64,000 nucleotides of DNA from Escherichia phage vB_EcoM_E9.1, in sequence record PP886230; one strand, written 5' to 3'. Under the pieces are notes generated by a model. That model saw only the letters and a list, made by a program, of their open reading frames with translations. It was not told the DNA's origin and made no database searches. Below, one piece after another: positions 7,436-39,056 of this stretch; position 1 is the first letter of the stretch, and each line of letters opens with the position of its first letter. Position numbers and translations under genes: made by a program.

Positions 7436-7772
7436 AACTCAAATAGAATTAAAGAAATTTGTTTCATTCTATTTTCCTGATGACCCACGTAATTCACAAA
7501 AAGATATTGAATATTATAATATCCTATCTAAACAGTTAATGAGAAAGTTTCAACAGTGTTTAACTATATTCAATACAGATGGAAGACGTAGATACCGAAT
7601 CGTTTCAATGAATGATGAAAACGCAAATTTCTTTGATTACGATGTAGTTTTTAGAGCATATAATGATGATCGTATAAAATTAAATTATGATCAAATTATA
7701 CTTGACCTGAATGTTATATGTGTTATAATCACTCACGTAGCCGAACTTAATGGTTTTAAAGAATGGTATTGA
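7428..7772 (+). CDS. hypothetical protein (114 aa)
   Basis: ORF. Confidence 0.5.
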   Translation: MDKTQIELKKFVSFYFPDDPRNSQKDIEYYNILSKQLMRKFQQCLTIFNTDGRRRYRIVSMNDENANFFDYDVVFRAYNDDRIKLNYDQIILDLNVICVIITHVAELNGFKEWY

Positions 7773-7786
7773 ATAGAGGATAACAT

Positions 7787-8053
7787 ATGAAGCTTAAATT
7801 ACAATATAATGGATTTACTTTACGTAATGATACTGAATTTATTAATCGTTCTCCTGGTGCTGAACTGTTTTTACGAGAGATGAACATTCCTTTCATCATT
7901 ACTACAGTGGGCGACCGTGAAGTTCTACAATATGCAGAGCATCCGATTATTGATGTTCCTTGGTACTCTGAGCATATGTACATGGATATGGCACGTCGCT
8001 ACAACTGTAAGTTCGTAGTTGAAGGTGATAAAATTACAGTCGAATTTAAATAA
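7787..8053 (+). CDS. hypothetical protein (88 aa)
   Basis: RBS agagga. Confidence 0.55.
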   Translation: MKLKLQYNGFTLRNDTEFINRSPGAELFLREMNIPFIITTVGDREVLQYAEHPIIDVPWYSEHMYMDMARRYNCKFVVEGDKITVEFK

Positions 8054-8065
8054 GGTAAATTAAAA

Positions 8066-8359
8066 ATGATCAGTACTTCAGTTAATGAAAGCATCGTCGC
8101 TGACGTAGAAATGGTTAAAGAATGTGCAGATGAAACTCTTCGTGATATGTACATTAATGATTTAATTACTGAATACGGTAGTCGTGGTGTACACGAATTT
8201 ATTCGTTTAAGTGGAGAGTTGATGAAAAATCGAATTCGTATGAAGCTTAACGTACATCCAAAAGCATGGGCATTTACATTAAAATACGCAGAAGATATTG
8301 TGAATTTGCGTCGAACTGAAGTATATGAACGTTTGCACAATGGTATGTTAGATAAATGA
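8066..8359 (+). CDS. hypothetical protein (97 aa)
   Basis: ORF followed by terminator hairpin. Confidence 0.55.
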   Translation: MISTSVNESIVADVEMVKECADETLRDMYINDLITEYGSRGVHEFIRLSGELMKNRIRMKLNVHPKAWAFTLKYAEDIVNLRRTEVYERLHNGMLDK

Positions 8360-10414: not shown

Positions 10415-11692
10415 ATGAAATCTATGGAGAGAAATCAAATGCCAAGTAATTTTACTGATAAAAATGGTGGTAACATGGCTGGTCACTCTGATAAATGGAG
10501 TGAACGCAACCGCCGTCCAAATAGTTATCAAGCAGGTCAAGGTTCACGTGGATCACGTAACCAAGGAACTGGTCTAGCTGGTAAAGCAAACGCAGAAGCA
10601 GGTGAAGTTAAGAGTACTGAGAACATGACTGAGCTAGAAAAGCTACGTTATGTTAATTCATTGGGACTTCTTAATGCTACACAAAAACAACGCCTAGCTG
10701 ATATGGAACGTGAAGAAAAAGAAAAATCTGCTCCTGCTAAAGAAGAACCAAAACAAGAAGCACCAAAGGCGGTTAACCCTGTCAAAGAACTGTCGGATAA
10801 GTTAGGTAAGATTTTTGCTAATAAACCACAACTTATCCAAGGTATTGTGAAAGAATTGCAATCTGTACCTAAAGAAGAATTAAAAGTCAAAGCACAAGCT
10901 GTGCTTGATGCAATGAGTGGAAATACCAGTACTGAACCAACTGAAGTATTCAGTACTATAATGCGTGCACTTGAAGGTACGCAACAAGGTGATGTGCCTG
11001 CACAAGAGGAAGTAAGTCTTGAAAGCGTACTTAAAACATTTGATAGTATTGGTAAAGAAGACCGTGCTAATGCTCAACAAGTTAAGAATGTACTAGCTAA
11101 GTTAGAAAACCGTCTGGAAGGTAAAGACGATAAGATTAAATTAGTATCTGATGCAGTTAACGATGCACTTAAATCTTATGTACAAGGTGAAAAGAGTCGT
11201 TTTGTAACTGCAATGGATGCTGCATTCAATACTATGAAAAAGTATGAAGCTGATCATGGTGAGAAGGTTACACGAGATGGTTATCTGATGCGTGATGATG
11301 AAGAAGGTGCAGTAGAACAGAACGATGTTCATTCAGACGAAGAAATTGATGACATGGAAGCTGAACTGTCACAAGACCGCCAAATGACTGAAAAATCCCA
11401 TAACGAACTACAGAAATTAATGCAATGGGTTGCAGATGTTGGTGAAAAAGCTGGTGCTGATAAGAAGAGTATAAACCGAAATCTTAGTTGGATTAAAGAT
11501 AAAGTTGGTAACAACGCTCGTAAACTACAAAAAGCGTGGACTGATGTAGTGAATGGTGCTGTTGACATTGATGTTGAATCCGGTGAGGCATATGATTATG
11601 CATTGACTACACTTGATGACTCTTTCCGTGATTACGAAAATGGAAATGTAACTCCTTGGGAAAAGGACATCATGAGCAAATACGGTAAATGA
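10415..11692 (+). CDS. acidic charged protein (425 aa)
   Basis: long ORF, low-complexity charged regions. Confidence 0.6.
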   Translation: MKSMERNQMPSNFTDKNGGNMAGHSDKWSERNRRPNSYQAGQGSRGSRNQGTGLAGKANAEAGEVKSTENMTELEKLRYVNSLGLLNATQKQRLADMEREEKEKSAPAKEEPKQEAPKAVNPVKELSDKLGKIFANKPQLIQGIVKELQSVPKEELKVKAQAVLDAMSGNTSTEPTEVFSTIMRALEGTQQGDVPAQEEVSLESVLKTFDSIGKEDRANAQQVKNVLAKLENRLEGKDDKIKLVSDAVNDALKSYVQGEKSRFVTAMDAAFNTMKKYEADHGEKVTRDGYLMRDDEEGAVEQNDVHSDEEIDDMEAELSQDRQMTEKSHNELQKLMQWVADVGEKAGADKKSINRNLSWIKDKVGNNARKLQKAWTDVVNGAVDIDVESGEAYDYALTTLDDSFRDYENGNVTPWEKDIMSKYGK

Positions 11693-11696
11693 TAAA

Positions 11697-11735
11697 ACAA
11701 AAGGTTGACTTCGGTCAGCCTTTTTTTGTAAATAC
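11697..11735 (+). terminator. terminator/promoter hybrid element
   Basis: aaaGGTTGACttcgGTCAGCCttttttt. Confidence 0.55.
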
Positions 11736-11763
11736 AAAAGAGGAATTAAGAAGAGGGATTACA

Positions 11764-12015
11764 ATGAAAAAATATATTATATTTGGAATTGTATTATTTT
11801 CCAGTACTGCTTATGGTGCAGATTATCATTGCTCCGTAGCAAGGCAGGATTTCAGAAATGGGGAGTTCTATACTACCTCATACACAAAAGGAATAATACA
11901 CGACACCGACAGAACTATTGGATTTAATGCGTTTGACAACAAAGATTCATATACTTCAGGTATACTATCTGAGCGTAAGACTGATGTAATGGGAATAGAA
12001 AAAGAGTTCCGGTGA
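11764..12015 (+). CDS. small secreted protein
   Basis: internal ATG (MKKYIIFGIVLFSSTAYGA) with RBS aggaatt; signal peptide. Confidence 0.5.
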   Translation: MKKYIIFGIVLFSSTAYGADYHCSVARQDFRNGEFYTTSYTKGIIHDTDRTIGFNAFDNKDSYTSGILSERKTDVMGIEKEFR

Positions 12016-12025
12016 TTCAGTAGCA

Positions 12026-12325
12026 ATGTGCAATGGCATTGAAAGTACTAAAACAATTTATTATAATAATGAACGTAACTATCGTTTTCATAATTTAACC
12101 ACAAATAAAAGTTTACTATTTTACAATTGTAAAGAAGTAATACTCCCATCAGACAATAGCTGTACTCCAACTAATCAACCCCCAGCACAATGTAATACTC
12201 CCTCTGAACCTGATAAAAATAAAAAAGACAAAAAACCTTTAAAAGATAAAAAGAAAGATAAAAAACCTAATCCGTTTAAAAATAATAAACAAGCACAACC
12301 CGATATGACGTGTAAAATAAAATAA
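12026..12325 (+). CDS. hypothetical protein, Lys-rich C-terminus
   Basis: ORF. Confidence 0.4.
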   Translation: MCNGIESTKTIYYNNERNYRFHNLTTNKSLLFYNCKEVILPSDNSCTPTNQPPAQCNTPSEPDKNKKDKKPLKDKKKDKKPNPFKNNKQAQPDMTCKIK

Positions 12326-12334
12326 GGATATATA

Positions 12335-12754
12335 ATGAAAAAGATTTTTTTAAGTATTATTTTAGTACTTTTTAGTTTTAATGTATATGCAGCAGATGCT
12401 AAACAGGTTGCAAATACAGTAAAAGATGTTATAGTAGATAATGCTCCTACATTAGAGGAAATTGGGGTAAAAACTTGTGATATAGTAATATATAATTTAG
12501 TTAATGATGAACGAGTTATGTTGAATACGTATGAACAAGTAGTCCCATTGGTTGAATCTGGTGATGCTTTTAGCTTTACATATAAAGTTAAATTAACAGG
12601 AGGGGTTGAAGTTAATCTTGACATTGATACCGCTTCAGTACTAAAAGATAAACTAGGATATGTGTTCAATCGTATTCGTGAAGAAGGTCATCTTAAGTAT
12701 GTTTATGAAAGTAAAATACTAAAACGTGCAATAGTTATAGAAAACTGTAAATGA
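12335..12754 (+). CDS. secreted protein (signal peptide)
   Basis: N-terminus MKKIFLSIILVLFSFNVYA. Confidence 0.55.
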   Translation: MKKIFLSIILVLFSFNVYAADAKQVANTVKDVIVDNAPTLEEIGVKTCDIVIYNLVNDERVMLNTYEQVVPLVESGDAFSFTYKVKLTGGVEVNLDIDTASVLKDKLGYVFNRIREEGHLKYVYESKILKRAIVIENCK

Positions 12755-14158: not shown

Positions 14159-14500
14159 ATGATTTATTACACTAACATGTTTGCCTATGCTGTTGCTTGC
14201 ATTTACATTGTGTACTTCTTATTCGGTGGAGTACTGTGCTTCTTTAAGTACAAAACGTTGTTCAACCGAATGTACCCAAATCATCCAATTGTGGTTGTAC
14301 TTTTGATTCTTTCAGTTTCTCAAATAATAGTTGAAACTACAATGGGTATCAGTAGTGTACATTATAGTTTTGGTACTATAGTAATTATTACTATGCTTAT
14401 TGCATACATTTTAGTACTTGGATATGGTATCTTTGGTAATATTGGTATGAAAATGTATCATCGAATTAAAACATTACGTGATAATCTACCGGAGCGTTGA
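14159..14500 (+). CDS. small polytopic membrane protein, paralog family A
   Basis: C-terminal R.NLPER; track start is an upstream TTG. Confidence 0.55.
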   Translation: MIYYTNMFAYAVACIYIVYFLFGGVLCFFKYKTLFNRMYPNHPIVVVLLILSVSQIIVETTMGISSVHYSFGTIVIITMLIAYILVLGYGIFGNIGMKMYHRIKTLRDNLPER

Positions 14501-14501
14501 T

Positions 14502-14846
14502 ATGTATAATTTGAACCTAATCTCATATATTATAACAACACTGTTTACATTCTATGCCTTTGTTGGTATAATCCTACTGTACTTTAAATTTTATAAAGTG
14601 TTTAACCGTTTCTATCCTTCAATGGAGAATGAGTTTTTCTTTGTGTTGTACGTAGGTTACACATTAATGGCTACATGTTTCACTGTAGCCGATGGTGTCA
14701 TCGGCATTAAAACTGATTCCCCAAATGGTAGTACGCTGGTTGCATTTATTCTTACTGGATTCCTTGCAACTTATATTGCCTTCATTACAACATGGTCAGT
14801 GGTTGAATTTCTCTTGCGACTACGAAAGAATATGCCGAATCGATAG
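14502..14846 (+). CDS. small polytopic membrane protein, paralog family A
   Basis: C-terminal RKNMPNR; internal ATG with RBS ggagcg. Confidence 0.55.
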   Translation: MYNLNLISYIITTLFTFYAFVGIILLYFKFYKVFNRFYPSMENEFFFVLYVGYTLMATCFTVADGVIGIKTDSPNGSTLVAFILTGFLATYIAFITTWSVVEFLLRLRKNMPNR

Positions 14847-14855
14847 GAGACATAT

Positions 14856-15110
14856 ATGTTTGCGTTGCGTAATAAAAACACTAAAGAATTATTATGTATT
14901 GATACCGTATGGGATTGTGCGGGGTCAACTACAGTTCTTGAAGAAGGAACTGGATATTGCGTGTTTGTTGTACATGATAGGAATGAACTCGAATTATTAC
15001 TTGCTGAGTTCAATGCTGGTGGTAATCCTAACAGTACTGAATACCCTGAGATTATCAATCCAGCACCACCAGGCTCTTATGAAATTCTACAACTGTGGGA
15101 GTTGAAGTAA
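14856..15110 (+). CDS. hypothetical protein (84 aa)
   Basis: RBS aggaga. Confidence 0.5.
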   Translation: MFALRNKNTKELLCIDTVWDCAGSTTVLEEGTGYCVFVVHDRNELELLLAEFNAGGNPNSTEYPEIINPAPPGSYEILQLWELK

Positions 15111-28260: not shown

Positions 28261-29403
28261 TCAATAAACATCCCAAGGTAATGGGGTCTTCCTAAATCCA
28301 TACCTGGTTGTGCTCGCACCATCTCCAGCAATGTATCGACCGATGCCACATTGGTATAACTCTGTACTACTACATATAGCACCACCAATAGTACCACTAC
28401 CCCACTGAATTATATTAGAATATGTTATTGGTAAATCACTACATTTAGTATATACACCAACGGTAGCAGCACCACTAATACCACCAAACATGCTTCGGTT
28501 AGCACCAGTGTAATATATACCATCTGGACTCATAAATGCAGAGGTGTACGTTGTACTACAATCCACTGGACTTCTTATAGTATTAAGATCGCCAGGGTAT
28601 GTTCTAGCAGCATATACGTAAACATTACCATCAGTAGTAATACCATTACCCAACTGACCACTGTTCTGACCACCACACGTAACTAACGATGCAGAACCAG
28701 AAACAATTGCAGTAGCATTATACGAAGTACCCATTGCAATAGAAGCACCAGACAATAGTTTTGGTGTAACGATAGCTGTTGTATTACCCTGGCCTAATTC
28801 ACCATTTGTGTTTCGTCCCCATGCGTATATAGAAGTCGTATCCAATCGACATAGTACTGAACCATAACTAAACGTATATCGCATGTCATTTACAGCAGAA
28901 GGCAAATTAACCTTAGTTGCAACACTAATAACACCACCAGTAACACCACTGTTTGCGTTCATGTTACGACCATATGCATATAAAGAACCATCTGAAGTTT
29001 TAATATGCATCATACCATCTGTGCAATATAATGCATCGATGCTATCCACCGCAACCGGACCCATACTGGCAGTTATATCGGTCCATCCAAGAGTAGTAGT
29101 ACTAGAAATTAAGTTATTTCCTGCGTAAAGGATTCTATTATTATTAGTAACTACCACTGTATATCTAGCAGTAACTCCAATTAATCGAACATCAGTATAT
29201 ATCTTAGACCACGCACCTAGTGAATTGGTATTTGCATCCAAAAAGCCTAACTGCCCATCTGTATTGTATCCAATACCCCATGCATCACCTGCACTGTCCA
29301 ATAACACTTCATGTGAAAAGCCAATCTTAAAATCTTTTATTGTAGGAACTACCGGAACTGGTGCAATATTCCCGTACTTAACCATTCTTCCAAAAGGTAA
29401 CAT
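28261..29403 (-). CDS. leader-tagged RCC1-like beta-propeller protein
   Basis: leader MLPFGRMVKYGNIAP; motifs GYNTDGQLGF, GRNTNGELGQG, GGQNSGQLGNG; start trimmed from track ORF. Confidence 0.75.
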   Translation of the reverse strand: MLPFGRMVKYGNIAPVPVVPTIKDFKIGFSHEVLLDSAGDAWGIGYNTDGQLGFLDANTNSLGAWSKIYTDVRLIGVTARYTVVVTNNNRILYAGNNLISSTTTLGWTDITASMGPVAVDSIDALYCTDGMMHIKTSDGSLYAYGRNMNANSGVTGGVISVATKVNLPSAVNDMRYTFSYGSVLCRLDTTSIYAWGRNTNGELGQGNTTAIVTPKLLSGASIAMGTSYNATAIVSGSASLVTCGGQNSGQLGNGITTDGNVYVYAARTYPGDLNTIRSPVDCSTTYTSAFMSPDGIYYTGANRSMFGGISGAATVGVYTKCSDLPITYSNIIQWGSGTIGGAICSSTELYQCGIGRYIAGDGASTTRYGFRKTPLPWDVY

Positions 29404-29474
29404 AATTCCCTCCTTATTCATTATACTATATTTAATACAAATAAGAAAGCCAGTATCAAGTACTGGCCTATATT
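29404..29474 (-). promoter_or_regulatory. cassette spacer: hairpin, -10 TATAAT, RBS
   Basis: same conserved spacer. Confidence 0.55.
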
Positions 29475-30212
29475 TTAGACTGAATTGTTAGGATAATATC
29501 TCCCACGTCCCCATATTATTCGCACAGCACCACCACCAGCAGCCGTATAAGAAAAATTATCCCATATACTACCACCACCACCATACATCTTACCAGCACC
29601 ACCACTACCAGCACCACCATTATATGAACCATCGTATCTACCGCCAATACCATTAGCACCTTGAACAATGATACCAGTACCACCACCCGTACCAATGAAC
29701 GAGGTATTATAGAATGCACCACCACCACCGCCGCCGCCAGCACCATTTTCACCAGTGATTGCATCTCCGTTACCACCTTTACCAGTGTAGCCACCAGCAC
29801 CACCACCAATGACTGCACCACCACTTACACCAGCGTTGCCCCCATTACCACCACCATCATTAATAGCGTTAGCAGCTTTCCCACCTAGTCCACCAACCCT
29901 ATATTCACCAGTGAAGCTAACACATAGTTTTTCAGTTCCACGATATAAACCGTTTTCAACTGCTGTAGTAGTGTTGGGATGTGTAAGAGAAACACTTAAG
30001 TACTCACCACCAGAAACCGGAATATTATTACGCCACGATAAGCCGCCACCAGCACCACGTTGACCACCCGGCGAAATAACACATACTGATATTTCGGTAA
30101 CGCCAGCAGGAACTGTAAATTGTGTTGTTCCTATTGTCGTGATTAATTGTTCACCATGTGGCTTATATTCAATTTTATTCCCGTACTTAACCATTCTTCC
30201 AAAAGGTAACAT
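29475..30212 (-). CDS. leader-tagged glycine-rich protein
   Basis: same leader MLPFGRMVKYGN fused to Gly-rich body (GGGNGGNAGVSGG...). Confidence 0.65.
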   Translation of the reverse strand: MLPFGRMVKYGNKIEYKPHGEQLITTIGTTQFTVPAGVTEISVCVISPGGQRGAGGGLSWRNNIPVSGGEYLSVSLTHPNTTTAVENGLYRGTEKLCVSFTGEYRVGGLGGKAANAINDGGGNGGNAGVSGGAVIGGGAGGYTGKGGNGDAITGENGAGGGGGGGAFYNTSFIGTGGGTGIIVQGANGIGGRYDGSYNGGAGSGGAGKMYGGGGSIWDNFSYTAAGGGAVRIIWGRGRYYPNNSV

Positions 30213-30283
30213 ACTTCCTCCTTTATTCATTATACTATATTTAATACAAATAAGAAAGCCAGTACAAAGTACTGGCTAAATTA
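30213..30283 (-). promoter_or_regulatory. cassette spacer: hairpin, -10 TATAAT, RBS
   Basis: same conserved spacer. Confidence 0.55.
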
Positions 30284-31474
30284 TTACAATTGTCTAGGTG
30301 TATCCAGAACATATCTATTTGTACTAGGACCACCATCATCATACGTTCCGGTTGAATATATATTTTTCATATCAGCAGTTAGAAAAGTACGATACGAACC
30401 GCGATATATTTTTATTTTATCATACATAGAATATGATATTTCTGCTGGCATTGGACATATAGTAAATCTACCAATAGTAACATTAGAACCAACACCCAAC
30501 GAACCAGCATAACTACTCGCATTTAAACCAGTTGCATATACACCAGTACTCGTAACTAGTATACTAGATTGTGTTGGGTATCCTGTATGAATTGAATACA
30601 AAGTTCCAGTTGGTAATGTCGTACTATTGCTCCCTAATACAGCAATTGCCGAACTGGTTGTGGTATTGTTACCCCATGCACCATTACTCGCTAAACCACC
30701 AACTAGAAACTGACGTGCACCAGTACTTGGATTCTCAACCAAAGCACTGACTGCACCACTTGAGCATCCAGTGTATTGTAACGTTTTTGTGTATGTTGTA
30801 CTTGGTTTATATAAAGTATATTCATTAAATGGTGTCCATGTGGTACTGGTACTTATACCTGACGTACCACCACCAATATATAAATTATTTTGTGTATCAA
30901 AAAACATTACACAGTTATTTGTTGACAGTATTTGTGCAATATCAACATTAGGCGTGACAGCTTTTACAAATGATCCATCTGTTATTTGTTGAGTACTACC
31001 AGTACCATCAGCGAATTGTCTAGCCCCACTCCAACCAGTACTCCATATTGTATTATTATCCATTAATACCGTAAACCACGTAGTACCTCCATACATCTGT
31101 TTAATTGAAGTACTTGAACTTTGCGTGTACAAATTTTCAATATATTGGTTATAACTTAAAAACGTAGTAGTACTAGTTGGTAAACCAACATGATCACCAT
31201 ATCCACAATAAAAATAATTTGAGTCATTATCTTTTACTAATAAAGTTCCTTGTGTAACCCAGCAATCGTTAACGTTTTCTCTAATTAATGTCCATGATTT
31301 TAATGCAGTGTTGTTTCCCCTACCAAATTTCCCAAAACTATTATTCCCACGTGCATATAGTTGACCATCCGTATACAGAACAACAACATCTAAATCAGTT
31401 GGGATTATTTTCTTAATTTGAAGTGGTACTGGGGCAATATTCCCATAATTCATCATTCTTGCAAAAGGTAACAT
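30284..31474 (-). CDS. leader-tagged RCC1-like beta-propeller protein
   Basis: leader MLPFARMMNYGNIAP; own spacer with hairpin and promoter. Confidence 0.7.
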   Translation of the reverse strand: MLPFARMMNYGNIAPVPLQIKKIIPTDLDVVVLYTDGQLYARGNNSFGKFGRGNNTALKSWTLIRENVNDCWVTQGTLLVKDNDSNYFYCGYGDHVGLPTSTTTFLSYNQYIENLYTQSSSTSIKQMYGGTTWFTVLMDNNTIWSTGWSGARQFADGTGSTQQITDGSFVKAVTPNVDIAQILSTNNCVMFFDTQNNLYIGGGTSGISTSTTWTPFNEYTLYKPSTTYTKTLQYTGCSSGAVSALVENPSTGARQFLVGGLASNGAWGNNTTTSSAIAVLGSNSTTLPTGTLYSIHTGYPTQSSILVTSTGVYATGLNASSYAGSLGVGSNVTIGRFTICPMPAEISYSMYDKIKIYRGSYRTFLTADMKNIYSTGTYDDGGPSTNRYVLDTPRQL

Positions 31475-31545
31475 AAATTCCTCCTTTATTCATTATACTA
31501 TATTTAATACAAATAAGAAAGCCAGTACAGTGTACTGGCATTAAA
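31475..31545 (-). promoter_or_regulatory. cassette spacer: hairpin, -10 TATAAT, RBS
   Basis: same conserved spacer. Confidence 0.55.
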
Positions 31546-32694
31546 TCATTGTATAAATGACATATCAACTTCTGTATAACTAAGAATGTTTTGTCCAGCA
31601 ATTCCCCCCATTACTACCATAGCATACCCACAATAATATAATTTCTCAGTGTCCGTAAGTATAAGTGAACCAGATGGAGTGCGTACCAAATTACACGAAC
31701 TATTAAACGAAGTATACGAAGGAGTATATGAGTACTGATTAATATTATTACCAACACCTAATTGACCAAATCCATTCGACCCAGATGCGTATAGAACTTC
31801 ATCACCTTTAGCTATATGTGATGCCATGTTACTAACACACGTATATAGAGTATAAACTCCCGAACTCAATAATGTCGGAGTTTTGTATTGTATATCGGTG
31901 GATGAAGAAGTACCACCTGTGCCAAATTCGTTCCCGTATTGTGCACCGAACTGTTTACCACAAGCGTACAAATTATTATCCGATTTAATAAAAAATGTAC
32001 TTTGATAACTTACATCAAAATCTATAACATCCGAAGAAATCATCGTCACCCCAGTAATAGAAGTTTGATTACCTGTACCTAACTGATAGTAATAGTTAAA
32101 ACCACAACCCCATAAAGTATTATCTTCTTTTAGGTATATGTTACCAACTGCCTTTTTAACCGAAGTTATAGTATCTACCCTTTTGAATGTGTTAAAAGAA
32201 TTAATGTTTGTACCATCACCAAATGATGATAGGTTCGAGTTATTGTTAACTCCACAACAATACAACGTACCATCGTTTGTTATCAAATTCACCTTCATAT
32301 CATTAAAACTACTCATGTATTTTATATCAGAAACATTAATACCACCTGATGTTATCCACGTAGTACAGTCCGTCCACAAAGTTTTTGTATCAGTTACACC
32401 AGTGAATGCCTTCGTGTTACCCGTGATAAAAACTTTTCCAGTACCTTTCTCTTCATACAATTGACAACTACTACTGTTATCTTCCAATAGAACTCGTTTA
32501 ACATTCTCTGCACAAAGAATAAATTTACTCGATGCTACACCTGTTCCAGTACCCCAATTCGTCGCAGAAGATGCATACAACTTATTAGTATAAGTATCAT
32601 GGAGATACATAGAATCACTTGAATATATTTTAAAACGCCTATCCTTACCAGGGGCAATATTCCCATAATTCATCATTCTTGCAAAAGGTAACAT
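31546..32694 (-). CDS. leader-tagged RCC1-like beta-propeller protein
   Basis: leader MLPFARMMNYGNIAP; GSNGFGQLGVGNN motif. Confidence 0.7.
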   Translation of the reverse strand: MLPFARMMNYGNIAPGKDRRFKIYSSDSMYLHDTYTNKLYASSATNWGTGTGVASSKFILCAENVKRVLLEDNSSSCQLYEEKGTGKVFITGNTKAFTGVTDTKTLWTDCTTWITSGGINVSDIKYMSSFNDMKVNLITNDGTLYCCGVNNNSNLSSFGDGTNINSFNTFKRVDTITSVKKAVGNIYLKEDNTLWGCGFNYYYQLGTGNQTSITGVTMISSDVIDFDVSYQSTFFIKSDNNLYACGKQFGAQYGNEFGTGGTSSSTDIQYKTPTLLSSGVYTLYTCVSNMASHIAKGDEVLYASGSNGFGQLGVGNNINQYSYTPSYTSFNSSCNLVRTPSGSLILTDTEKLYYCGYAMVVMGGIAGQNILSYTEVDMSFIQ

Positions 32695-32765
32695 ATTTCC
32701 CTCCTTTATTCATTATACTATATTTAATACAAATAAGAAAGCCAGTACAGTGTACTGGCATTATA
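32695..32765 (-). promoter_or_regulatory. cassette spacer: hairpin, -10 TATAAT, RBS
   Basis: same conserved spacer. Confidence 0.55.
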
Positions 32766-33905
32766 TTATTTCCACGGTAGAAGTGAATCAGGAACCCTTG
32801 TTGGTACAGTAGTTGAAGACATTCCAGTAAGATTGGGTACACCACATGTGTATAAATTATTATATTCGTCAACTAACATCGTATAAGAATAGCTCTTACA
32901 AAAACTACTAAGATTACTACCTTCTAATGCAGTAAGATCCATTTCAGCGAATGATGTTATATACATATCAGTTGTACCAATACCACATTGACCATTTGAA
33001 TTAAGGCCACATGAAAATAACTTATTATTATTATTAATTATACAGGATGGTCCGGTAAGGTTTGTCCCAAGCTCACCCACCAACTCCACTTCTCCTTGGA
33101 ATGATAAATTTGGAATTAATGTACTCATTGGGGCTACTGACCTATTTCCTGTACCTGCTTGTCCATAGTCGTTAATAGATGCAACTTTAACATTACCATC
33201 ATTAAGAAATATATAAGAAGTTTCATTTGTATTGACTGCTTTAATTGCATTACTAATCGAAGTATCTTGTGTAAATGTGAGCAAGTTTTGTGTCGTCGTT
33301 CCTGATACAAACGTTCTACCTGCATACCAATATGAACCATCATTTAGTACTAATCCAGTACTATATATTGCACAACCAGCACTGATAACATTTTCTATTG
33401 TACTATAGGTGAATCGTGAAACGCTTGAAGTTGATCCATTCCCAAAAACACCACCAGTACCAGCACCACAGTAGAACCACTTTCCATTTTTTAAAAATAC
33501 ACGCATACACGAAGATATCACAACACTATCAATATCATCTGCACTGACACCGAAATCAGTAAAGTTCTGTGTTATATCAACCCAAACGCCGTTAGTGTTT
33601 GAAGATAGTATTGGAATAACAGTACGTCTACCAGTGTACCAAATAGTACCATCTTTCTTTATAGCAATTGTTCCTTGTACCCCACCCCAATATCGTGTAA
33701 CATTTGAGTTGACAAGAGTCCATTCAGTTGAAGAGTCCAATGAACCATTACCACTTTGTCCATATGCTGAAGAACCAAACCAATATAGATTGCCATTTGT
33801 GTGTAAATAAAATTTGGCATCAGCAGAACATTGTAACCTGTTTTTAGGTAGAATCAGTTCAGGTGCGATATTCCCGTACTTAACCATTCTTGCAAAAGGT
33901 AACAT
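32766..33905 (-). CDS. leader-tagged RCC1-like beta-propeller protein
   Basis: leader MLPFARMVKYGNIAP; GLNSNGQCGIG motif; start trimmed from track ORF 32766-34067. Confidence 0.7.
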   Translation of the reverse strand: MLPFARMVKYGNIAPELILPKNRLQCSADAKFYLHTNGNLYWFGSSAYGQSGNGSLDSSTEWTLVNSNVTRYWGGVQGTIAIKKDGTIWYTGRRTVIPILSSNTNGVWVDITQNFTDFGVSADDIDSVVISSCMRVFLKNGKWFYCGAGTGGVFGNGSTSSVSRFTYSTIENVISAGCAIYSTGLVLNDGSYWYAGRTFVSGTTTQNLLTFTQDTSISNAIKAVNTNETSYIFLNDGNVKVASINDYGQAGTGNRSVAPMSTLIPNLSFQGEVELVGELGTNLTGPSCIINNNNKLFSCGLNSNGQCGIGTTDMYITSFAEMDLTALEGSNLSSFCKSYSYTMLVDEYNNLYTCGVPNLTGMSSTTVPTRVPDSLLPWK

Positions 33906-33975
33906 ATTCCCTCCTTTATTTGTTATACTATATTTAATACAAATAAGAAAGCCAGTACAGTGTACTGGCATTATG
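33906..33975 (-). promoter_or_regulatory. cassette spacer: hairpin, -10 TATAAT, RBS
   Basis: same conserved spacer. Confidence 0.55.
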
Positions 33976-35085
33976 TTATTTTGGTAAATCAATTTTAGTA
34001 AAGACTGCAACATCCTCGATTGCACCTGGAATGGCGTAATACGATCCAGTACTATACACATCTCCATTTTTGGTTAATATCGATGTCAAACCATCACTAA
34101 AAAGAACATCCCTAATCTCACTAACTTCAACGGGTAATTGTAAATTGGTAGCACTATATATAGCACCAGTTTGAGAATTGTTTAATCCCAAACCACGGTT
34201 CGCCCCAACACCCTTCTGATATGTACTAGTAATTACCATTTGTGTAGCAGTATTTAAGGCAGGTGAATTCGTCATAAACAATGGAGAACTATTAGGCAAA
34301 GTACTTACAGGAACTGCACGGAATGTAGTCGTACCTGAACTAAGAAAGTTTGGAGTTTGACCACATACGAAATATGATGTACCATTATAGTAATTTAATG
34401 CATTACCACCAATGGCTGCATCGATTACACCAGAACTACGCAATCCCCAAGTGTTAATTTGTGTTTGGTTCCCCGTACCATGCTGCCCACTACTATTCCA
34501 TCCAGAACTATATAGCTTATTATCTAATGTAAGATACATACTATCATTCGCATTGGTCATTACTTTACGAACGTTCGTAGCACATTGAGTTAATGTGTAA
34601 ATTGATGAGGAACCAATACCCAAAGAACCACGATATCCATTATCTCCTGCACCATAGAGTACTGAATTAGTGCTAAGTACAAATATTAAACCATTTGTAC
34701 ATACAATATTAGCAATTTCACTTACTGGTATAGCATTGGTAAACCAATTAGTTCTTTCAACTAATACAGTACTGTAAGAAGTAGTTGTAGAAGATGAGAA
34801 CCAGTACGTTTGACCTGATGTCCATATCGTATTATCATTTTTAATAATAACAAGTGTACGATCACCCACGAAAAAATTAGAAACATCTGCACTTACTAAT
34901 GTCCACGAAGACACCGTGTTGGTATTACCATTTCCAGATTCACCACCTTGATTTCTACCTATGTAATATAAATCATGTGAATCAGTCAATAAGAATTGGC
35001 CTTGGGTAGAAGCACCAACTTTAATTATTTTTTTAGGACCAGGGACAATATTTCCATACCTAATCATTCTTCCAAAAGGTAACAT
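33976..35085 (-). CDS. leader-tagged RCC1-like beta-propeller protein
   Basis: leader MLPFGRMIRYGNIVP; GWNSSGQHGTGNQT motif; start trimmed. Confidence 0.7.
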   Translation of the reverse strand: MLPFGRMIRYGNIVPGPKKIIKVGASTQGQFLLTDSHDLYYIGRNQGGESGNGNTNTVSSWTLVSADVSNFFVGDRTLVIIKNDNTIWTSGQTYWFSSSTTTSYSTVLVERTNWFTNAIPVSEIANIVCTNGLIFVLSTNSVLYGAGDNGYRGSLGIGSSSIYTLTQCATNVRKVMTNANDSMYLTLDNKLYSSGWNSSGQHGTGNQTQINTWGLRSSGVIDAAIGGNALNYYNGTSYFVCGQTPNFLSSGTTTFRAVPVSTLPNSSPLFMTNSPALNTATQMVITSTYQKGVGANRGLGLNNSQTGAIYSATNLQLPVEVSEIRDVLFSDGLTSILTKNGDVYSTGSYYAIPGAIEDVAVFTKIDLPK

Positions 35086-35093
35086 ATTCCCTC

Positions 35094-36296
35094 CTATTGT
35101 TGCCATAACTGCGTTGGCATTAATGTTAGTGTAGTAATACTATAAGTGCCATCTGGCAATCTACCACCATTTCCATTCCAGCCACCACATGCATATAATT
35201 TATAATCTTTAGTAATTATTATGGTTCTGCTCCAATCTTTAGATGCCATAAGAACATTGTCATAACCACCACTTATTGCACTAAGATTAAAAATATTCCA
35301 AGTTCTAACTAATGTATTAGTTCCATTACCTTCTTGACCATATGAGTTAGCACCACTACTTCTAACATATGGTGCGTATTGTGCCATAGGTGCACCAATT
35401 GATGCATTTCCCATATTACTTGGACAAATAAAAGTACTGTACTTACTTACATCAACCGTGACCGATGTGTTCCTAATTGGTGTTAGCTGATTTACCGATG
35501 TAGTCGTACCATTACCAGCTTGTCCAGAACTGTTAGCCCCGCTATAATATACAGACCCACCAGTAGTAAACCACCAAGTAACATCGTATGTAGTACTAAT
35601 ATGTTCTACATTACTAATCACGAATTTGTTCAAATATACAACAGAACTACCACCACATCCACTTTCACCAAAGTTATCCTTACCACAAAACCATGCATCT
35701 TTATTTGATTTGATATAGTGCGTTCCTTGTAATGAACATGCCATATGTGTAACTTCACCCATATTAGTCATAACTGTGAGTGTAGGGATGGAATTTTTAT
35801 TCCCAGAGCCACATTCACCATTAGTATTTCTTCCACACGCAATTACTCTACCATCGGTTAATAATATTCTAGTACTTTCACCTATATATACACTCTTGAT
35901 CATATTAGCCATAACACCTATTTTATTAAATGCAACAGTAACATCAGTCCATGTTGTCAAATAACCATTAACAGGTGTTGCATCTCCATAATCAGAAAAT
36001 GCACCCACAGACCCAGTGTAGTATATTTTATTATCCAAATCAATCATCAATGAACCTTGAACACCAAGCCAAAAGGCTGCACAGTTCCTTGCAAGTACTG
36101 TAAATGACGAAACTGCTGCTGAATTCCCAAGACCAAATTGATAAAAGTTATTACTACCATAACCATATAAAGTATTAGTTGGGTTATGGAGATACATACA
36201 GTTTGTATAATGTTGTTGTAAAACATCTGAGAACTCTACAGGTTCTGGACCTGGTGCAATATTTGCGTACTTAACCATTCTTCCAAAAGGTAACAT
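35094..36296 (-). CDS. leader-tagged RCC1-like beta-propeller protein
   Basis: leader MLPFGRMVKYANIAP; GANSSGQAGNG motif; stop close to next start. Confidence 0.7.
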   Translation of the reverse strand: MLPFGRMVKYANIAPGPEPVEFSDVLQQHYTNCMYLHNPTNTLYGYGSNNFYQFGLGNSAAVSSFTVLARNCAAFWLGVQGSLMIDLDNKIYYTGSVGAFSDYGDATPVNGYLTTWTDVTVAFNKIGVMANMIKSVYIGESTRILLTDGRVIACGRNTNGECGSGNKNSIPTLTVMTNMGEVTHMACSLQGTHYIKSNKDAWFCGKDNFGESGCGGSSVVYLNKFVISNVEHISTTYDVTWWFTTGGSVYYSGANSSGQAGNGTTTSVNQLTPIRNTSVTVDVSKYSTFICPSNMGNASIGAPMAQYAPYVRSSGANSYGQEGNGTNTLVRTWNIFNLSAISGGYDNVLMASKDWSRTIIITKDYKLYACGGWNGNGGRLPDGTYSITTLTLMPTQLWQQ

Positions 36297-36367
36297 ATTT
36301 CCCTCCTTTATTCATTATACTATATTTAATACAAAAAGAAATGCCAGTATCAAGTACTGGCATAATA
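36297..36367 (-). promoter_or_regulatory. cassette spacer: hairpin, -10 TATAAT, RBS
   Basis: same conserved spacer. Confidence 0.55.
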
Positions 36368-37546
36368 TTATCGGTTAAATTTAAAATCTGTTATGTGTGT
36401 CCATGTATGATTTAATGGGGTACTCATTGGTGTAAAGCCAGCAGGGTCTGACAAAGCTGTACCACGTGCGTACATAAATTGATTGCCAGTACAATCCATT
36501 ATAGCATAAGAACGTGTTGCTGTGCCACATTTGAACCCAACTGCACTACTTGGGGTCGGTAATACTTCAAATGTAGGTGCATTTGAACTACCACCCCCAT
36601 CTTTTGTTCCAGCTATGTACAGAACTCCATTAGTATCAATGATTAAGTTAGTCCAATATGCTTGTTCTCGACCAGCATAAAAATATGTTAAATCACCGGG
36701 TACAAATGGTAACGTTCCTTTATATATTGTAGTATTAACATTCACTGGTGCACCAGCTACACCCCATGAACTCATATAGTTTCTCCCACTTGAGTAGAAT
36801 GTAGTTCCTTTACCGTAAAGTATTAATGTTGCTTGACTTGTTCGCATTGCATTATATTCAAACTCAGGATCATCAGTAGCGTCCTTAAAAATCTGTGTCC
36901 ATGTTGTTATATTACCAGTAGTCGTAACACCCATTTGATAATAATAATTATCACCAGTAGCATAGAATTCTTTAGGGCCAGTTTGTACAATTGCATTCCC
37001 ATTAGTTAACCAAAAATCTAATGTATTAGTCTTGATCTTGGTTGGTGTGTAATTCGCCACGGTATTTCCTTTTCCGAAATAACCATTAGCGTTATTTCCA
37101 TGACCCCATAAATCACCATTAGTTGTGCGTAGGAATAATGTACCAGTATTGAATCCAACTTTTTCTATAGTACTTATGTCAATACCAACAGTCGTGTACT
37201 TCGTTGTAAAATCTTGAAAAGTACTCCAATAATTAGATGAACCATTAAACATGGTTTGTCTACCAGTGTACTTCACTTTATTATCGTTAGTGATAAGTAA
37301 TGTCCCCCACACTGACGCGAACATTAACTTAACATTTTCCATAACAAAGTATGGCTTACCGTATGCTGACGCGGTAGTGTTTAAACCTAATAGTTGTCCA
37401 TCATTACTACAACCCCATACTTCGCCGTTATCCAAAAGCATCAACATAGTAGGTTTGCCGGATGATACATCCAAAAAGAAATCTTTTGGTGTTGGTACGC
37501 CCGGTGCTTCATTTCCATAATTCAACATTCTTCCAAAAGGTAACAT
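36368..37546 (-). CDS. leader-tagged RCC1-like beta-propeller protein
   Basis: leader MLPFGRMLNYGNEAP. Confidence 0.7.
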   Translation of the reverse strand: MLPFGRMLNYGNEAPGVPTPKDFFLDVSSGKPTMLMLLDNGEVWGCSNDGQLLGLNTTASAYGKPYFVMENVKLMFASVWGTLLITNDNKVKYTGRQTMFNGSSNYWSTFQDFTTKYTTVGIDISTIEKVGFNTGTLFLRTTNGDLWGHGNNANGYFGKGNTVANYTPTKIKTNTLDFWLTNGNAIVQTGPKEFYATGDNYYYQMGVTTTGNITTWTQIFKDATDDPEFEYNAMRTSQATLILYGKGTTFYSSGRNYMSSWGVAGAPVNVNTTIYKGTLPFVPGDLTYFYAGREQAYWTNLIIDTNGVLYIAGTKDGGGSSNAPTFEVLPTPSSAVGFKCGTATRSYAIMDCTGNQFMYARGTALSDPAGFTPMSTPLNHTWTHITDFKFNR

Positions 37547-37615
37547 AGTTCCTCCTTTATCATTATACTATATTTAATACAAATAAGAAAGCCAGTATCA
37601 AGTACTGGCATCGTA
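37547..37615 (-). promoter_or_regulatory. cassette spacer: hairpin, -10 TATAAT, RBS
   Basis: same conserved spacer. Confidence 0.55.
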
Positions 37616-38725
37616 TTACTTGGGTAATGGAATTGTGGTCCATCTATTTGCGGCAACGTCACCTGGTACATATGTAGGACTACCACTTACAGCAATAGTT
37701 TCATTACCATCATATACAACACTGAAGTTTGTGCACGTATACAACGCTGCGGCATCTGGATTGTAATTTTCAAGTGTTAGTGTATTGGTGAACAAATTCA
37801 ATGCAGTAGTTGAGCCGTTTTTACCATATGCACCTGTAGTATATATCTTTCCTTCTGTTGTTGAGTACATATTAACATATGACCCAGATGATGATTTAGC
37901 AATTTTATCTATCTTGCTATCTATTGTTTTAGAGTTAAATTGAAATGGATATACCTGTACGTTAGTATCTAAACCATTTCCCAGTTCCCCATTTAACTGC
38001 CACCCTGTGTGGTACATTCCCGCATTTGTATATGCAAGCGTACTATACGCATTACCACCCATTATTTTAGTGCCAGATAATTTTAAACCAAACGATGTCC
38101 ACTTACCAGTTTCATTTCCTATGGAACCATAAGCACTTGTACCACACGCACGAAGCTCGCCATTTGACGTTAGAAGCACTGTATTATTAACGTTACCAAA
38201 TATATCAATAACCTGATTAGTGCCATTATTCAGTACTGAAGTAAAAGTACTCTGTGAGTAAGTACTACCTGAACCAACAGAACCATTTGTGTTCATACCT
38301 CTTCCATATACAATTTTACCATCAGCACTAACATAGTGCATTGAATCAAAACCAATGGATATCATTTTAATATCAGATATATCTGGAAATGAAGAAGTTA
38401 CATCTACTCCACCTAGTGGAATTGTATTATTTCCTAAACCTAATGAGACATTAGTTCCGTGCATTATAAATTTATCTTCTTTAAAATATAAAATATTATA
38501 TCCACCAGCCCATGCATTATTAACGCCATTTGTAATCAGTACCCATTTATTTTGTGTAGTAGTTCCAGTAATATTTAACTGTTGATAGTTATTGATTCCA
38601 CAACCATATAGCGATCCATCACCATATAGTACATATAAATTATCATATCCTGCAATAACTTTCTTTATTTTTTTGGGTACAGGTGCTACATTCCCATACT
38701 TTAACATTCTTCCAAAAGGTAACAT
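37616..38725 (-). CDS. leader-tagged RCC1-like beta-propeller protein (first cassette)
   Basis: leader MLPFGRMLKYGNVAP; divergent promoter region upstream. Confidence 0.7.
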   Translation of the reverse strand: MLPFGRMLKYGNVAPVPKKIKKVIAGYDNLYVLYGDGSLYGCGINNYQQLNITGTTTQNKWVLITNGVNNAWAGGYNILYFKEDKFIMHGTNVSLGLGNNTIPLGGVDVTSSFPDISDIKMISIGFDSMHYVSADGKIVYGRGMNTNGSVGSGSTYSQSTFTSVLNNGTNQVIDIFGNVNNTVLLTSNGELRACGTSAYGSIGNETGKWTSFGLKLSGTKIMGGNAYSTLAYTNAGMYHTGWQLNGELGNGLDTNVQVYPFQFNSKTIDSKIDKIAKSSSGSYVNMYSTTEGKIYTTGAYGKNGSTTALNLFTNTLTLENYNPDAAALYTCTNFSVVYDGNETIAVSGSPTYVPGDVAANRWTTIPLPK

Positions 38726-38828
38726 TATTTTCTCCTTTATTCATTATATCATATTTACCTCCTAACGAAAACCCTTGACATTCTTTCAGTACTGGTGTAC
38801 TATAGAAGGAATATAAGGAGAACTACAC
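38726..38828. promoter_or_regulatory. divergent promoter region between the two arrays
   Basis: plus strand TTGACA (~38775) - 17 nt - TACTAT then aaggag RBS; minus strand TATAAT plus RBS for first RCC1 cassette. Confidence 0.5.
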
Positions 38829-39056
38829 ATGACAAATACTCTTAAGTACTACCTCAATACTCTAAATGAACTAGAGTACGGGGAATTTCTCGCGGATAGT
38901 TCGTGGCTAATTGAGCTAAAAAATTATAATAGTCCAGGATGCACCCTTATGATGAACAATGCAATTGATACCCTCATTGTGAGTATTTTACACAGCAACA
39001 TCTGCGGGGATAGCAATAAACAATTATCAAAAATCTTAGTACTGCTATCTATATGA
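38829..39056 (+). CDS. small-paralog family member (75 aa)
   Basis: N-term ..KYYLNTL, central NNAIDT, hydrophobic C-term ILVLLSI. Confidence 0.6.
   Translation: MTNTLKYYLNTLNELEYGEFLADSSWLIELKNYNSPGCTLMMNNAIDTLIVSILHSNICGDSNKQLSKILVLLSI

Follow-up and report, generated by a model that had tools for sequence, protein, structure and literature searches.

A short leader shared with neighbouring RCC1-like paralogs heads a glycine-rich, TNF-like protein of Escherichia phage vB_EcoM_E9.1, a candidate accessory virion protein

This analysis concerns a small gene in a 64,000-nt stretch of Escherichia phage vB_EcoM_E9.1 (sequence record PP886230), an Asteriusvirus, i.e., a jumbo coliphage of the 121Q/phAPEC6 type. 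The whole stretch is called the window, and positions are given in its coordinates. The gene encodes a glycine-rich protein of 245 residues. At its N-terminus it shares a 12-residue leader, MLPFGRMVKYGN, with 11 neighbouring RCC1-like paralogs, and the rest of the protein is unmatched by them. The reading that we favour, with a probability of about 0.6, is that the product is a small accessory virion protein: the leader would be an incorporation or docking peptide, and the cargo behind it a swappable, surface-binding head.

The leader stands out sharply in the window. The minus strand holds all 12 copies of its DNA motif, spread from 25743 to 38725, where shuffled sequence gives a mean of 0.08. 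Leaders in the window are 67-100% identical to one another (median 83%), and the bodies of the RCC1 proteins 22-37%. The array holds ten intact RCC1-like proteins of 369-400 aa, and nine of their 15 invariant columns fall within residues 1-15. MLPFGRMVKYGN satisfies the type A pattern M-L-P-F-x-[RIP]-[MLI]-x-x-Y-[GA]-N directly after the ribosome-binding site (RBS), and MLPF is the start in all 12 cassettes and in all orthologues; an alternative ATG reported by the open reading frame (ORF) tool at 30230 (MNKGGS...) lies upstream, within the promoter/RBS region. In structural models the leader precedes the first strand and has a low predicted local distance difference test score (pLDDT), 53 in the glycine-rich protein and 51 in an RCC1 protein, and residues 1-19 of the glycine-rich model show no helix and low pLDDT. 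As modelled, the leader is therefore an appendage ahead of the folded domain. In the RCC1 proteins it is followed by a Pro-rich linker (IAPVPVVP, EAPGVPTP).

A preliminary description of this DNA had claimed the shared leader and a glycine-rich body devoid of RCC1 motifs, and it had named a frame error, with an RCC1 gene read in the wrong frame, as what would undo the observation. The gene starts with the ATG at 30212, ends with the stop codon at 29475-29477 and is intact over its 245 codons, and its translation holds MLPFGRMVKYGN, GGGNGGNAGVSGGAVIGGGAGGYTGKGGNG and GAGGGGGGGAF exactly as quoted there. The share of glycine is 29% overall and rises to 41% in residues 100-230, and there are 30 GG dipeptides. 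By Pfam the neighbours have RCC1-like domains, and this protein has none. When the ten intact RCC1 paralogs were compared by tblastn with all six frames of 29475-30212, they matched the annotated frame only, and there only the leader codons (residues 1-12, weakly up to residue 28). No RCC1 similarity appeared in the other frames, so the frame-error refutation fails and the observation is confirmed.

Could the glycine-rich frame still be an artefact, either in this way or as a decayed, low-complexity pseudogene? GGN-rich DNA does open spurious ORFs in other frames, such as the poly-Val ORF annotated as gp004 in phAPEC6. Yet, besides the lack of RCC1 similarity beyond the leader in any frame, 16 of 17 Asteriusvirus records have an intact ORF, 179 homologues keep the invariant non-glycine residues Y142, W234 and P241, the fold is predicted with high confidence, and homologues have been detected as proteins. 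Frame, conservation, homologue, fold and proteome evidence together refute the artefact, to which we give practically no chance. The orthologues concerned are "hypothetical proteins" of 94-99.6% identity in 16 Asteriusvirus records; the 17th copy, in phage CMSTMSU, is 85% identical and frameshifted, and was left out of the strain comparison for its frameshifts and the UNVERIFIED status of its record. In the phAPEC6 record (MK817115; locus L001, 9177-11239) the glycine-rich gene and the adjoining RCC1 paralog are both unannotated, and the out-of-frame gp004 lies inside the former.

What, then, is the glycine-rich body? Direct searches in Pfam, NCBIfam and PDB sequences returned nothing above threshold: the protein has no Pfam match at E<=0.1 and does not reach the gathering score of PF21722 (Gly_rich_2; 24.3 bits), below which two glycine-rich paralogs of Serratia phage BF also remain (20.2 and 17.9 bits). 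The apparent hits of a profile search of the PDB were Gly-Ser linkers and were discarded, and the sole direct family match was to PHROG 4474, of "unknown function". Glycine-rich homologues, which the preliminary description had proposed to look for in related phages, were nevertheless found. Phages and metagenomes supplied 179 relatives; most of them stand alone as proteins of ~250 aa, and many bear PF21722. By phmmer, members bearing PF21722 are reached at E values of 1e-15 (P0038) and 2e-16 (P0037), and PF21722 is matched by 21 of 73 aligned homologues (E<=0.01; best 3.8e-13). In the 73-sequence alignment G121, G137, A139, G141, Y142, G211, W234 and P241 are invariant, R231 and G235 nearly so. 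The protein shares the motifs GGGxGG, GGGAGGY and VRIIWG with PF21722, a family to which Pfam gives no experimentally defined function. One relative from a Logan assembly (P0002, 206 aa) is a near-identical copy that lacks exactly the 12-residue leader (MNKGG-NKIEYKPHG...) and a 33-residue glycine run; it may have arisen from misassembly of repeats or be a form that naturally has no leader.

AlphaFold2, run with the homologue alignment, gave a model with a pLDDT of 93.8 and a predicted template-modelling score of 0.90, in which only the first ~19 residues are uncertain. In keeping with the missing RCC1 match, the model is a sandwich and not a propeller. Several solved or described proteins have the same fold. 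Tail fibre gp24 of cyanophage Pam3 (7YPX/7YFW) and its Klebsiella relatives TFP_Y and MMNM_27 share it at 16% identity. Mycobacteriophage Bxb1 contributes its tail "wing brush" protein gp33 and tail spike gp29 (9D93; 14-23% identity), but at a siphovirus tail tip and with another mode of attachment. The extracellular glycine-rich domain of ALK/LTK (7LRZ, 7LIR, 7NX3) also has it, although here it is part of the cytokine-binding ectodomain of an animal receptor tyrosine kinase, and the PDB profile search detected no sequence relationship to it. Foldseek ranks these same solved relatives first, and a BFVD search gave 85 viral matches, mainly named "glycine-rich domain-containing protein". From these structural matches the body is predicted to be a TNF-like sandwich with a polyglycine lattice, the fold of phage fibre tips, which makes up the receptor-binding tip of both gp24 and the brush protein gp33. 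The solved relatives are all extracellular binding modules, either fibres or receptor ectodomains. Host recognition by Pam3 gp24 is described as residing in its TNF-like and Gly-rich domains (PMC9608196), and the gp24-like Klebsiella fibre TFP_Y binds lipopolysaccharide (LPS), with host-range mutations in its Gly-rich domain (PMC12671077).

Differences between Asteriusvirus strains (UE-S1, Sharanji) fall mostly on non-glycine residues, namely E103, R105, A127, A166, R192, D194, M209 and F220. No glycine of the glycine runs is replaced between strains, G68S lying outside them. The variable residues between the runs, from 103 to 220, may be ligand-contact loop tips.

The leader is not confined to this phage. 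A degenerate DNA scan of IMG/VR and the reading of GenBank records found it only in Rak2-like jumbo phages, always as the start of an ORF behind an RBS: in CBB, GAP32, Serratia BF and the uncultured 355-371 kb contigs L015/36, L032, L041 and L044. The scan for the type-B leader gave 51 loci, with true MLPF ORFs only on contigs of 354-371 kb; the remaining loci were chance matches and were rejected. There are two leader subtypes, MLPFxR[MLI]xxY[GA]N and MLPFPIISNT. At least five cargo types stand behind them: RCC1, Kelch, Laminin_G_3, the PHROG-6011 type and the glycine-rich body. CBB has at least ten leader ORFs beginning MLPF...Y[GA]N, a lower bound from the two loci covered, and its leader proteins carry Laminin_G_3 (CBB_548, CBB_551), Kelch (CBB_550, CBB_552, CBB_554), the PHROG-6011 type (CBB_549, CBB_553), no recognised family (CBB_536, CBB_537) or a glycine-rich homologue (CBB_144). 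The ten leader ORFs of Serratia phage BF comprise seven RCC1 proteins, two glycine-rich proteins and one PHROG-6011 "virion structural protein"; GAP32 gp001 starts with MLPFSRIIQYGN, and other contigs add further leader-headed Laminin_G_3 proteins.

Some leader genes are unusual in their make-up or position. Two leader-headed proteins of 667-673 aa combine RCC1-like and Kelch propellers in one chain (L032, 140-2161; L041, 6413-8416). CBB_144 (L003, 9001-9765) stands by itself between nrdD and nrdG, which are genes of anaerobic ribonucleotide reductase, far from the other leader genes of CBB, and GAP32 has no counterpart of it. In BF (L005, 1041-1676), an uncultured relative (L006, 522-1142) and CBB (L011, 13361-13984), the leader arrays have beside them, on the other strand, a DUF1190 lipoprotein-like gene. 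The corresponding ORF of the window (23968-24630) is not DUF1190, so the gene was rejected as a conserved partner.

Outside the jumbo phages a different leader accompanies related cargo. Among the 120 homologues listed, 32 start with M-[LIF]-E-[LIM]-[LIM], these being the closest non-jumbo homologues, and homology to those of the MLELL type begins at the linker KIEYKPH of our protein. The Seunavirus EspYZU08, a Cronobacter phage, has RCC1-like, glycine-rich and PHROG-6011-like cargo behind the leader M-x-E-[ILM]-L-x-[IG]-G, in the forms MFEMLLGG, MLEILTIG and MQELLLIG, respectively; these three proteins (L010; PHROG-6011-like at 7674-8324, RCC1-like at 11353-12516, glycine-rich at 14366-15103) are unannotated in its record. 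A distant homologue on a 216-kb contig has no shared leaders in its context. Judged from the sequences, the leader appears to go with the lineage of the phage and the cargo families to be common to the lineages, as would be expected of a leader that fits a particle site peculiar to each lineage.

Are these proteins part of the virion? In the published proteome of CBB, 55 of 554 ORFs are virion proteins, and they include eight of the ten leader ORFs (144, 536, 537, 548, 549, 551, 552 and 553; hypergeometric probability 2e-7). CBB_144, the glycine-rich homologue, was detected with five peptides and 34% coverage. In phAPEC6, the 62 virion proteins among 551 include six of the eight annotated leader ORFs (hypergeometric probability 4e-5), with 1-4 peptides each. 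GAP32 gp001 is a structural protein by mass spectrometry (MS), and the liquid chromatography-tandem MS table for the virions of three Erwinia Eneladusvirus phages lists a "PE-PGRS family protein", which is the BF-type glycine-rich protein, and mentions "DNA condensation" proteins four times; the spectral counts of the Erwinia leader proteins reach ~1-2% of those of the major capsid protein. In Pectobacterium phage CBB, gp144 ("structural protein"), and likewise the "PE-PGRS" proteins of Serratia BF and Erwinia pEa_SNUABM, belong to PHROG 4474, have an MLPF-type leader and are similar in size to the window protein; they differ from it in being only ~34-35% identical, in the MLPFPIISNT subtype of BF, and in having neither a function nor a place on the particle assigned. 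The glycine-rich protein is absent from the phAPEC6 proteome. Since its gene is unannotated in that phage, a search based on the annotation would omit it, together with the adjoining RCC1 paralog, and this absence is uninformative.

The surroundings of the leader raise another question: is it a protein element at all? Eight window cassettes share a block made of a GCCAGTAC-loop-GTACTGGC hairpin with a T-run, the AT-rich box TATTAAATATAGTATAAT, AAGGAGG and the coding sequence through codon 12, and the similarity ends abruptly on both sides. Terminator-like hairpins number 16 where 5.7 are expected, one after almost every cassette. The AT box looks promoter-like and resembles the ATAAATA late motif reported for CBB; as a sigma-70 promoter scan found 57 sites against 64.8 expected and did not call the box, no promoter class is claimed. 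Two copies of a ~110-bp junction repeat flank the glycine-rich gene (30176-30286 and 29367-29477), differing by five mismatches and four single-base gaps. Asteriusvirus JNE01 lacks the glycine-rich gene and has a single copy at the place where the window has two, with the gene between them; 28153-29477 and 30176-31476 both align to JNE01, with an overlap of 111 bp. With the breakpoints placed in the repeat, the comparison shows at the sequence level that gain or loss affects the cargo as a whole. Together with leaders conserved over divergent bodies and the same leader on other cargo, this bears out the preliminary description in its view of a leader with swappable cargo.

From this it might be argued that the leader has no role in the protein and is kept as part of a ~110-bp expression and recombination junction homogenised by gene conversion. 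The first 21 nt are indeed identical, synonymous sites included, in 11 of the 12 window copies, conservation continues without a break from the hairpin via the RBS into the leader, and the JNE01 indel uses the repeat. However, across genera MLPF...Y[GA]N is kept while its codons differ (CCT/CCA/CCG/CCC, TTT/TTC, TTA/CTA/CTT), and the upstream DNA is unrelated, the cassettes of CBB and BF lacking the window hairpin and AT box; the leader therefore seems to be conserved at the protein level, and the synonymous differences point to selection on the protein. Moreover, CBB_144 keeps the leader outside any array, and two window cassettes keep it without the upstream module. A purely DNA-level role is on these grounds quite improbable.

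The two cassettes in question start at 27005 and 35085. They have neither hairpin nor AT box and begin 8 nt past the previous stop (TAGGAGGGAAT-ATG), and are thus probably coupled in translation to the upstream paralog instead of being separately transcribed. The first cassette of the array has no hairpin upstream (38726-38835) and an altered box, TATGATATAATGAATAAAGGAG, consistent with the outer boundary of the array. The twelfth cassette is split: a 74-aa ORF (25539-25763, minus strand) carries the leader MLPFGRIITSSK and the first RCC1 blade, and a 298-aa ORF (24611-25507, minus strand) the remainder of the RCC1-like domain; it is either a frameshifted or decaying paralog or the product of a sequencing error.

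If the leader acts in the protein, where does it send its cargo? One answer would place it inside the head. Internal proteins IPI-III and Alt of phage T4 share an N-terminal tag of ~10 residues, carry diverse cargo, come from a hypervariable locus and are incorporated into the virion; their tag ends in L/I-x-E and their cargo lies inside the head. By analogy, the leader could be a capsid-targeting sequence, and the cargo would be packed in the head or inner body and possibly ejected to bind host or defence proteins. The short N-terminal tag on diverse cargo at a variable locus fits this pattern, as do the low abundance of the leader proteins in virions, the inner body of phAPEC6, as components of which its authors nominated the RCC1 paralogs, and the L-x-E, like the T4 protease site, in some CBB leaders. 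Against it, the window leaders differ from the T4 tag in that none of the 12 contains Glu: the prohead-protease site L/I-x-E is absent from them, and no T4-type or phiKZ-type cleavage motif is conserved. The cargo folds are of the adhesion type, Laminin_G_3 and Kelch being typical adhesion modules, and the Pro-rich linkers of the RCC1 proteins look like exposed tethers. Because the solved relatives of the glycine-rich fold are exposed, the other cargo has adhesion folds and the leaders lack the protease motif, a location inside the capsid is rated lower, and we consider it unlikely.

The accessory virion protein that we favour would work as two modules. The first, residues 1-12 and a short linker, would be the unstructured MLPF leader, class-wide in virion proteins of Rak2-like jumbo phages and serving, as a signal or docking peptide, to fasten these proteins to one common site of the virion. 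The second, residues ~20-245, would be the TNF-like beta-sandwich, with loops forming the polyglycine lattice, and would bind a host surface glycan such as LPS. The array would then amount to about a dozen alternative binding heads on one tag, 10 or 11 of them RCC1 propellers and one glycine-rich, each cassette being an independent unit of terminator, promoter-like box, RBS and leader, and homologous recombination at the ~110-bp junction repeat would let the phage gain, lose or exchange cassettes.

Several points weigh against this proposal. The exterior location is deduced from the modelled fold by itself, and the authors of the phAPEC6 study suggested that the RCC1 paralogs might make up the inner body of the capsid. 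The array has small uncharacterised genes around it and stands outside the main structural module. Virion detection covers homologues (CBB_144, the Erwinia "PE-PGRS" protein and RCC1 paralogs) and not the Asteriusvirus glycine-rich protein itself, which is below every Pfam and NCBIfam threshold. Between strains pN/pS, the ratio of nonsynonymous to synonymous polymorphism, is ~0.5-0.6, with just 10-15 substitutions, too few to speak for constraint or for diversification. Finally, Pam3 gp24 docks by a helical trimerisation domain, and the glycine-rich protein has no such domain.

The comparison with Pam3 is instructive in other respects. The N-terminal domain of gp24, made of two helices, both trimerises the fibre and docks it to the baseplate, whereas here a 12-residue leader stands in its place. 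In addition, gp24 needs the Tfa-like chaperone gp25, encoded next to it; no Tfa-like fibre chaperone gene adjoins the glycine-rich gene, both of whose neighbours are RCC1 paralogs.

In modular receptor-binding proteins of phages, distal binding domains can be interchanged behind a conserved N-terminus, which anchors them all at one site of the particle, and in the adenovirus fibre a very short conserved N-terminal peptide serves as the attachment. The phage anchors known to us are folded domains of ~100 residues or more, on trimeric fibres. The window proteins differ from these in that the shared part is ~12 residues long and heads unrelated, probably monomeric folds. A further step, offered tentatively and with less confidence than the accessory virion protein itself, is that the leader is a universal plug for one virion socket, on which shuffled, unrelated lectin-like heads of the RCC1, Kelch, Laminin_G, PHROG-6011 and TNF/glycine-rich kinds are displayed; the socket would possibly be the "hairy" fibres of phAPEC6, 121Q and CBB, and the M-x-E-L-L leader would be its analogue in Vequintavirinae, serving the same cargo families in the same way.

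Coordinates of the gene, its parts and its surroundings are collected in Table 1.

Table 1. Features of the leader-headed array and of the glycine-rich cassette (window coordinates)
Feature	Position	Strand	Remarks
Leader-headed array of 12 cassettes	24611-38725	minus	10 intact RCC1-like, 1 split RCC1-like, 1 glycine-rich
Coding sequence of leader-tagged glycine-rich protein, 245 aa	29475-30212	minus	ORF, sequence; orthologue of 121Q gp243
Leader codons 1-12, MLPFGRMVKYGN	30177-30212	minus	only part matched by RCC1 paralogs
Linker KIEYKPH	30156-30176	minus	pLDDT 76 for residues 11-20; first strand at residue 20
N-terminal beta-sandwich half, ~residues 20-100, predicted TNF-like	29913-30155	minus	boundaries approximate
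Glycine-rich region, ~residues 101-228	29529-29912	minus	41% Gly, invariant GGGAGGY; from composition, boundaries approximate
C-terminal strand and tail	29478-29528	minus	family signature AVRIIWGxxRxYP (AVRIIWGxxRxFP in family alignment); W234, P241 invariant; strand E229-234
RBS AAGGAGG	30217-30223	minus	4 nt 5' of ATG
AT-rich box TATTAAATATAGTATAAT	30229-30246	minus	identical in 7 of 8 aligned cassettes; one differs in last two bases
Hairpin GCCAGTAC-N3-GTACTGGC and T-run	30258-30276	minus	terminator-like end of upstream RCC1 gene (30284-31474)
Hairpin and T-run	29449-29467	minus	terminator-like end of glycine-rich gene
Upstream copy of ~110-bp junction repeat (hairpin, AT box, RBS, leader)	30176-30286	minus	corresponds to JNE01 L012 9068-9178
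Downstream copy of junction repeat	29367-29477	minus	heads next RCC1 cassette; bounds cassette with upstream copy

As for the genomic setting, the region around the gene is 97-98% identical to Asteriusvirus phages such as SP27, phAPEC6, 121Q and UB, and at least 80% of it is covered in 17 of 38 related records. The cassette holds no further ORF. In 121Q the corresponding gene 243 is named "hypothetical protein" between genes for a "regulator of chromosome condensation". The array is flanked by many small plus-strand ORFs without a Pfam match, except for an AAA-type NTPase at 20651-21421, and ARAGORN found no tRNA or tmRNA genes in the window (1-64000).

Databases already list the gene, its product being called a hypothetical protein, and the fold is likewise known. 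Of the shared leader, its presence at the head of at least five, mostly virion-borne, cargo folds, and the parallel leader of the Vequintavirinae, no description was found in the searchable literature, and the paper on Certrevirus CB7 held nothing of relevance. The proteins that carry the leader are labelled "regulator of chromosome condensation", "DNA condensation protein", "PE-PGRS family protein" or "hypothetical", and they are filed under nucleotide metabolism; the "chromosome condensation" and "DNA condensation" labels derive from the name of RCC1 and not from evidence. The data collected here point to a family of virion-borne binding modules with one short tag, and we place the leader proteins among the modular binding proteins of phages in which a conserved N-terminal element provides the attachment.

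Three consequences would follow if the tag were a docking peptide. The leader proteins would be candidates for the hair-like or whisker appendages of jumbo phages, and the exchange of cassettes at the 110-bp junction would explain how phages of ~350 kb diversify their adsorption repertoire. The 12 residues would also be a handle for the display of foreign binding domains on jumbo phages, and, should the universal plug prove true, the result would be a peptide-tag display system, unlike the domain-level anchors of phage receptor-binding proteins. To the TNF-like/polyglycine fold of the ALK receptor, the glycine-rich protein adds a phage context.

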